Origin: Escherichia coli
GTDB taxonomy: Bacteria > Pseudomonadota > Gammaproteobacteria > Enterobacterales > Enterobacteriaceae
Assembly (NCBI RefSeq): GCF_003334405.1
Contig: NZ_QOWM01000074.1
Direction: 5' to 3' (one strand)
DNA length: 232 nucleotides
In this document: piece after piece, positions 111 to 164 of the stretch
How the letters are laid out: each line of letters begins with the position of its first letter
How positions within the stretch are numbered: the stretch's first letter is position 1
The notes under the pieces: model-generated
The model's input: only the letters and a program-made list of their open reading frames with translations
Told to the model about the DNA's origin: nothing
The model's database searches: none
Translations under genes and position numbers: made by a program

Positions 111-148
111 ATATCTCAAAACAGACTGTTAAGTCTTGTTTGATATAT
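111..148 (+). other. Imperfect AU-rich RNA hairpin immediately upstream of boxA (boxB-like position)
   Basis: Inverted repeat paired by hand. Apical stem 123-127 (AGACT) pairs with 132-136 (AGTCT) around loop GTTA (128-131). Continuing outward: C122-G138 with T137 bulged, A121-T139, A120-T140, A119-T141, C117-G142 with A118 bulged, T116-A143, a C115/T144 mismatch, then 111-114 (ATAT) pairs with 145-148 (ATAT). No folding energy was computed. Confidence 0.55.
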
Positions 149-149
149 T

Positions 150-164
150 TGCTCTTTAAAAATC
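150..164 (+). promoter_or_regulatory. boxA-type antitermination element (spacer boxA; NusB/NusE binding site on the nascent transcript)
   Basis: TGCTCTTTAAAAATC at 150-164 matches the rrn boxA core (GCTCTTTAA-AA) at the expected place in the 16S-23S spacer, directly after a hairpin. Confidence 0.8.

Follow-up and report, generated by a model that had tools for sequence, protein, structure and literature searches.

The element at positions 150–162 of the DNA analysed here, a boxA in the 16S–23S spacer of an Escherichia coli rRNA operon, is real, strongly conserved, ordinary and already known. The window, by which we mean the whole 232-nt stretch, matches the rrnG 16S–23S spacer of E. coli K-12 MG1655 at 100% identity, and a match at 100% was also obtained in many further E. 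coli genomes. The rrn boxA is a textbook cis-element of the best-studied bacterial operon and has been described since the 1980s. Hence the original prediction, which had called the motif an expected rrn spacer element and not a novelty, was borne out: this is the spacer boxA of K-12 rrnG, and its biology is known.

RESULTS

Locus and layout of the window

In the annotated K-12 record the order of rrnG is 16S, tRNA-Glu, 23S and 5S, with clpB and kgtP as flanking genes, and the annotated start of 23S lies 29 nt past the end of the window. All features treated here are on the + strand, which is the transcribed strand, and are as follows.

1–76, + strand: tRNA-Glu(UUC), gltW of rrnG (ARAGORN; Rfam tRNA, 60.1 bits; RefSeq annotation)
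110–149, + strand: boxB-like hairpin (fold; covariation in 22 Enterobacterales Glu-type spacers)
150–162, + strand: spacer boxA, TGCTCTTTAAAAA (consensus matched at 12 of 13 positions; no match in 200 shuffles)
154–232, + strand: match to Rfam RF01830 (StyR-44), the full match being window-equivalent 154–253 (covariance model)
161–182, + strand: predicted 5′ strand of the 23S leader–trailer helix, AATCTGGATCAAGCTGAAAATT (duplex energies, covariation, mini pre-23S folds)
187–211, + strand: predicted leader-internal hairpin interrupting the leader–trailer helix (mini pre-23S folds, sequence comparison)
214–220, + strand: TCTCTCA, predicted next leader segment of the leader–trailer helix, with TGAGAGA in the trailer as partner (mini pre-23S folds)

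A copy of the whole window at an identity of at least 99% was present in only 1,080 of 5,432 E. coli records. The number of matching spacer places per E. coli genome had a median of 7 and rose to 17 in some genomes, and 10 of the ∼37,700 E. coli spacer matches were plasmid-borne and not chromosomal. Between tRNA-Glu and the boxB-like hairpin there is a second small predicted hairpin, GGUUUGUGAGUGAAAGUCGCCGACC, at 83–107. The fold of 77–170 as a whole was only marginally better than those of shuffled sequences (z = −1.6).

The boxA motif and its leader counterpart

The letters at 150–164 are TGCTCTTTAAAAATC, and the original prediction had taken all 15 nt as boxA. This was confirmed for 150–162, where TGCTCTTTAAAAA differs from the rrn boxA consensus TGCTCTTTAACAA by one mismatch on the + strand, and it failed for the last two positions, since 163–164 are part of the strand that enters the pre-23S leader–trailer helix. 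No match to the consensus with at most two mismatches appeared in 200 dinucleotide-preserving shuffles. The first eight positions of the element, UGCUCUUU (150–157), match the core of the consensus UGCUCUUUAACAA at 8 of 8 positions. A crystal structure is reported in which NusB–NusE recognise 8 nt of boxA RNA, almost all of them through NusB (PMC3177189), and by homology to this NusB–NusE–BoxA structure the contacted core in rrnG would be approximately 150–157.

The spacer boxA of rrnG follows tRNA-Glu at 74 nt and precedes 23S by 111 nt. The whole 12.2-kb operon locus (L001) contains only two boxA matches at two mismatches or fewer, which are the leader and spacer copies. The leader copy (L001 4144–4156) is located just downstream of two promoter-like sites (P2-like promoter), and the comparison with it that the original prediction had proposed found an exact consensus 144 nt before 16S.

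Conservation among paralogues, strains and species

In each of the seven rrn operons of K-12 the leader boxA reads TGCTCTTTAACAA and lies exactly 144 nt upstream of 16S, and the spacer boxA, identical in all seven, lies 111 or 120 nt before 23S. Upstream of the spacer copies lie three unrelated hairpin sequences, of the rrnG type, the rrnB/C/E type and the Ile/Ala-spacer type, and homology between Glu-type and Ile/Ala-type spacers starts at the TTT before boxA (window ∼148) and is then unbroken to 23S. Because this homology is continuous, identity within the genome does not single out boxA. A 30-nt query covering 148–177, searched under the megablast rule of a 28-nt exact word, matched at 37,689 places, compared with 37,982 matching spacer places for the whole window, and of the 5,426 complete E. 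coli genomes 5,423 had at least one such place; therefore ∼99% of E. coli spacers have this block essentially unchanged. The entire stretch from boxA to 23S is invariant within E. coli, and thus conservation within the species does not by itself single out boxA either.

For the comparison across species, loci were anchored on the first 32 nt of 23S, which is independent of boxA, with one genome per species. This gave 120 loci from five gammaproteobacterial orders (Enterobacterales, Vibrionales, Alteromonadales, Pasteurellales and Aeromonadales), and boxA was counted in the 80 regions, from 42 species, that have 400 nt or more of sequence before 23S. The pattern TGCTCTTTAAMAA was present at one mismatch or fewer in 79 of these 80 spacers and in 41 of the 42 species, 105–380 nt before 23S. 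The original prediction had been staked on conservation at this spacer position in related genomes, and it held by a wide margin. When both strands of the 1.36 Mb were scanned, 135 matches at one mismatch or fewer were obtained; 129 of them were at spacer or leader positions (99 spacers and 30 leaders), all on the sense strand, and three of the other six were Photorhabdus leaders that the 16S pattern had missed. Over 77 unique spacers from 45 species, with species equally weighted, information per column rose from below ∼0.7 bits through the hairpin region to ∼2 bits across boxA, with the exception of boxA position 11, which is A or C and holds 0.92 bits.

No boxA within four mismatches was found in the short, tRNA-less 16S–23S spacer, ∼240 nt long, of Vibrio sp. 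Isolate32 (L063). The leader boxA is present at this locus, 2,297 nt upstream of 23S, and the scaffold contains an N, so that an assembly problem is possible. The locus of Pantoea sp. 1.19 (L080) has two 23S 5′-end anchors 219 nt apart (9870–9901 and 10089–10120), each downstream of the same boxA, which points to a local duplication of the 23S start or to an assembly artefact.

Viral contigs were scanned with the 23S 5′ anchor, which gave no match, and with the 3′ end of tRNA-Glu, which gave 10 contigs, only one of which (L008, IMGVR_UViG_651053022_000007) has an rrn spacer fragment with boxA. This fragment, at ∼10,200–10,500, comprises ∼290 nt of E. coli-type rrn spacer (tRNA-Glu, hairpin, boxA and the start of the helix strand) and lies between a gpJ tail gene and exo/dicB prophage genes. 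None of the 5,426 complete E. coli genomes contains this junction, and we therefore treat the contig as a probable draft-assembly chimera.

A boxB-like hairpin abuts boxA

The hairpin at 110–149 has a lower stem (110–120/139–149), an upper stem (123–127/132–136) and a loop (128–131), and its fold energy is −10.2 kcal/mol (z = −3.2), a value that was reached by 2 of 200 shuffles. Its closing pair is A110–U149 and boxA begins 0 nt after the stem, giving the order hairpin then boxA, as in boxB-then-boxA. The arrangement described at the outset, a hairpin followed by a short T-run and then boxA, is thus right as regards the hairpin directly upstream and wrong as regards a separate T-run (148–150), because T148 and T149 form the last stem pairs and T150 is position 1 of boxA.

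Covariation was measured in an alignment of 22 distinct Enterobacterales Glu-type spacers against a 16-pair structure. The pairs were formed in 97.7% of cells and six of them change on both sides; none of 500 shuffles reached the observed paired fraction or covariation score, and slid registers gave only 18–51% pairing. In the wider set, a stable hairpin ends 0–1 nt before boxA in 54 of the 77 unique spacers (45 species), with a mean z of −3.5. As expected of the boxB-like stem-loop, the shape of the hairpin is conserved and its sequence is free. The C115/U144 mismatch in the K-12 rrnG hairpin is the sole non-pair at that position among the 22 hairpins. The rrnG upper stem (CAGACU/AGUCUUG; window 121–138) is unlike that of rrnB/C/E and is the same as that of Escherichia sp. 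ESNIH1. Several sources describe the boxB-like stem-loop as dispensable (PMC10250234, PMC4807359, PMC6614797).

The 23S leader–trailer helix is predicted to begin at boxA

Conservation does not end with boxA in the spacer copy. The tail 3′ of it has a conserved T at both +13 and +15 and a conserved GGA at +16 to +18; the leader boxA is without this tail. The tail is explained by a long-range helix with the 23S trailer, in which the segment from boxA +9 to +11 onwards pairs with the stretch that immediately follows 23S. In rrnG the predicted partner of 161–182 is GATTTTCAGCCTGATACAGATT, nt 34–55 after the 23S 3′ end (L001 9198–9219), which is ∼3 kb downstream and outside the window. Since the 5′ strand is placed at 161–182, positions 161–164 of the 15-nt box belong to the helix. 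That the complementary flanks of 23S form an RNase III substrate is described as long known (PMC10250234).

Pairing was assessed in three ways. In a duplex test on short segments, with 18 unique leader/trailer pairs from 12 species, leaders paired with their own trailers at a mean of −26.7 kcal/mol compared with −13.9 ± 3.1 kcal/mol for shuffled trailers, none of 360 of which did as well. In an alignment of 15 Enterobacterales sequences, the 22 proposed pairs were formed in 84.8% of cells, against 25–45% in slid registers, and one pair showed a clean A–U/U–A swap (7:7). Position 11 of boxA in this alignment forms a C–G pair in all 8 sequences that have C, and is unpaired in the 7 that have A, E. 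coli included. Mini pre-23S constructs were then folded, in which the leader and the two 23S ends, joined by a tetraloop, were followed by the trailer. For 7 of 7 operons, from six species, the minimum-energy fold contained one long leader–trailer helix running outward from the 23S termini and ending at AUCUGG/ACAGAU, and the E. coli fold left the boxA core single-stranded, while in the remaining folds the core was for the most part unpaired. Most of the seven folds, that of E. coli rrnG included, also paired 214–220 with the trailer, and GAGTCTCTCAA at this segment is conserved in nearly all of 37 Enterobacterales spacers. The hairpin at 187–211 differs in sequence and length between genera. 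RNAduplex of the whole leader against the trailer was discarded, as it returned an uninterpretable all-paired result and one shuffle scored equally.

Both the comparative and the modelled evidence thus place the start of the 23S leader–trailer helix either right at the 3′ end of the spacer boxA or within its last positions. The portions of the literature on rrn boxA and 23S flanks available to us contain no mention of a helix start at this place.

Alternative explanations of the conserved block

The chance that the resemblance to boxA is accidental is vanishingly small: an AT-rich context is all that speaks for it, and it is ruled out by the 0 of 200 shuffles together with orthologous conservation across five orders. 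A more serious alternative is that the block is conserved only as part of the pre-23S processing structure and not for Nus binding. It would explain why conservation extends past boxA into TYTGGA...AAGCTGA, why the stretch 3′ of boxA pairs with the 23S trailer through compensatory changes, and why the helix reaches boxA positions 11–13. Nevertheless it is the core at 150–157 that varies least, although the E. coli fold leaves it unpaired and the other folds mostly do so too, and this core corresponds to the 8 nt reported to contact NusB–NusE (PMC3177189). Moreover, the 16S leader has the same 13-mer in other structural surroundings, and boxA shows identity without covariation, as expected for a sequence read by protein. 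We consider the structure-only explanation improbable, and a purely structural reason for the conservation of boxA itself is unlikely.

Another possibility is that the hairpin and the U-rich tract UUUGCUCUUU form an intrinsic terminator, an attenuator or a pause site inside the operon, as the hairpin is AU-rich and a U-rich stretch follows it immediately, which is the shape that lay behind the T-run of the original prediction. An intrinsic (Rho-independent) terminator has a G+C-rich stem and a U-tract; here the stem is AU-rich and weak, at −10.2 kcal/mol, the 110–149 hairpin was not flagged in a scan for terminator-like sites, and the total number of such sites was not above that in shuffles. 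In addition, 23S lies downstream in the same transcript and is needed in equimolar amounts, and the hairpin sequence varies freely while the supposed U-tract is conserved base by base, its non-U positions included. Such a signal is highly improbable, although a short pause that aids factor loading is conceivable. A further alternative is an independent small RNA gene. The Rfam model of StyR-44 (RF01830) scored 91.8 bits in the window, where the match runs past the window end, and 105.3 bits at full length (L001 6154–6253), above the gathering threshold of 54, and Northern signals are reported for S. Typhi and E. coli (PMC2943607); on this explanation, the motif would be the 5′ end of that gene. 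Against it, a consensus scan found no promoter-like site in the spacer, and the match begins at boxA position 5, covering only the 3′ two-thirds of boxA. StyR-44 is modelled with an outer helix (173–182/220–229) that is in competition with the long-range helix. Conservation of the 3′ strand of this outer helix is limited to close relatives and does not extend to Pantoea, Dickeya or Photorhabdus, whereas that of the trailer pairing does. The full match ends 7 nt before mature 23S, which we take to be the RNase III cut site. As the start inside boxA and the end 7 nt before mature 23S fit excision from pre-rRNA, StyR-44 is most likely an excised spacer fragment rather than an independent gene, and its describers themselves were unable to rule out a metastable processing intermediate (PMC2943607). 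We give an independent gene starting in boxA very little credence.

DISCUSSION

Proposed action of the spacer boxA

Having weighed these alternatives, we think it very probable that 150–162 is the rrnG spacer boxA and that it acts through Nus loading and strand tethering next to a boxB-like hairpin, in the following way. The transcribed single-stranded core (150–157) would be bound by the NusB–NusE(S10) heterodimer, which, together with NusA, NusG, SuhB and S4, would form or re-form the rrn antitermination complex on RNA polymerase before 23S is reached, and the modified polymerase would elongate faster and resist Rho. Because boxA would stay tethered at the RNA exit channel, the adjoining strand at 161–182 would be held ready for the trailer, which would emerge ∼3 kb later and pair with it, the resulting helix being the substrate of RNase III. 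The hairpin at 110–149 is the boxB-like element upstream of boxA. The identity, position, strand and conservation of boxA and the covariation of both the hairpin and the long-range helix are results of the present analysis. Binding of Nus factors and its functional consequences are taken from the literature, that on binding being for leader and consensus boxA, and we infer that at the rrnG spacer copy the tether would specifically promote formation of the pre-23S helix.

The published background for this scheme is as follows. E. coli rrn operons are described as having boxB–boxA(–boxC) sets in the leader and upstream of 23S (PMC10250234, PMC4807359, PMC6614797). The rrn antitermination complex, with NusA, NusG, SuhB and S4, is reported to be nucleated by boxA, which is both necessary and sufficient for this (PMC10250234, PMC6614797), and to be Rho-resistant and elongate faster (PMC10250234). 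In the delivery model, which is stated for leader and spacer, the tethered nut-like RNA holds the 5′ strand that follows it close to the exit channel for as long as the 3′ partner of that strand has yet to emerge (PMC6614801, PMC8632103). The helix results, comparative and modelled as they are, fit this model for 23S.

Opinions on what boxA contributes differ. Mutation of boxA is reported to lower rRNA synthesis from plasmid operons, with Pfeiffer and Hartmann (1997) cited for the spacer copy, and the same source argues that antitermination is not the main role of boxA (PMC4807359). According to PMC10250234, deletion of the leader boxA lowered 30S activity only ∼3-fold and left the doubling time of a single-operon strain unchanged, and boxA would therefore be helpful rather than essential. 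The share of the benefit that comes from antitermination as opposed to chaperoning is disputed. As to the role given to the motif in the original prediction, the loading of Nus factors on boxA agrees with the literature, and the processivity of polymerase through 23S that was ascribed to it reflects the classical view, recent work putting the emphasis on RNA chaperoning and on delivery of the strands of the processing helix.

A further idea is more tentative, and we think it rather unlikely: boxA would be both the loading site and the single-stranded anchor at the far end of a pre-23S helix that spans ∼3 kb and starts at boxA positions 11–13 (window 160–162), so that closure of the helix would be physically coupled to whether the antitermination complex occupies boxA together with its 3′ flank. 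The A/C polymorphism at position 11 covaries with a G in the trailer. If true, there would be a built-in hand-off from the transcription complex to RNase III.

Comparison with known antitermination sites

The element is the same as the E. coli rrn spacer boxA of Berg, Squires and Squires (1989) and Pfeiffer and Hartmann (1997), as cited in PMC6614797 and PMC4807359, and differs from it in nothing of substance; the rrnG hairpin has a variant of the rrnB/C/E sequence and one C/U mismatch. The leader boxA shares with the spacer 13-mer every position except position 11, the order boxB then boxA and, according to the literature, binding by NusB–NusE (PMC10250234). In Enterobacteriaceae the leader has C at position 11 and the spacer A. 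More widely, C is found there in leaders and in most other spacers, and A in the spacers of Enterobacteriaceae sensu stricto, Pseudoalteromonas and Pasteurella (window 160 in rrnG). An A at this position removes both an ACA and the C–G pair with the trailer; ACA is present in the E. coli leader boxA and absent from the spacer boxA, and the ACA of the leader copy is reported to be a MazF site (PMC12541390).

Downstream of boxA the two copies part. The leader copy continues with TTTATCAG and has boxC, TGTGTGGG, ∼14 nt later, whereas the spacer copy runs directly into the putative 5′ strand of the 23S leader–trailer helix, which takes the position equivalent to boxC; no leader-type boxC TGTGTGGG was found between boxA and 23S at one mismatch or fewer. 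BoxC is reported not to be required for rrn antitermination (PMC6614797). Delivery of the 16S leader–trailer strand with boxC is similar in that boxA lies 5′ of a strand whose partner, with which it has to build the RNase III substrate, is kilobases away downstream. The 16S strand is reported to start 18–19 nt after boxA in 98% of Enterobacteriaceae (PMC10250234); unlike it, the 23S strand is predicted to start inside boxA or right at its 3′ end.

The nutL and nutR sites of phage lambda also combine a boxA bound by NusB–NusE with a stem-loop and nucleate a termination-resistant polymerase. The order in lambda, boxA then boxB, is however the reverse of that in rrn (PMC10250234, PMC6614797), and since the hairpin in the window is 5′ of boxA, a lambda-type nut site was rejected. 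Furthermore, lambda is described as needing the N protein on boxB, whereas the host has no N and the rrn complex uses SuhB and S4 (PMC10250234, PMC8632103).

Significance

The discovery value of the element is small, and its use is as a clean positive control, because its sequence, its position, its paralogues, its conservation in the population and its conservation across orders all fit a protein-read motif beside covarying helices. Recent work has been almost entirely on the 16S leader copy and not on the spacer copy. What the present comparison adds, and it is mildly useful, is explicit evidence for a 23S leader–trailer helix that starts at the 3′ end of the spacer boxA or just inside it, and with this predicted start the delivery model would become directly testable for 50S biogenesis.
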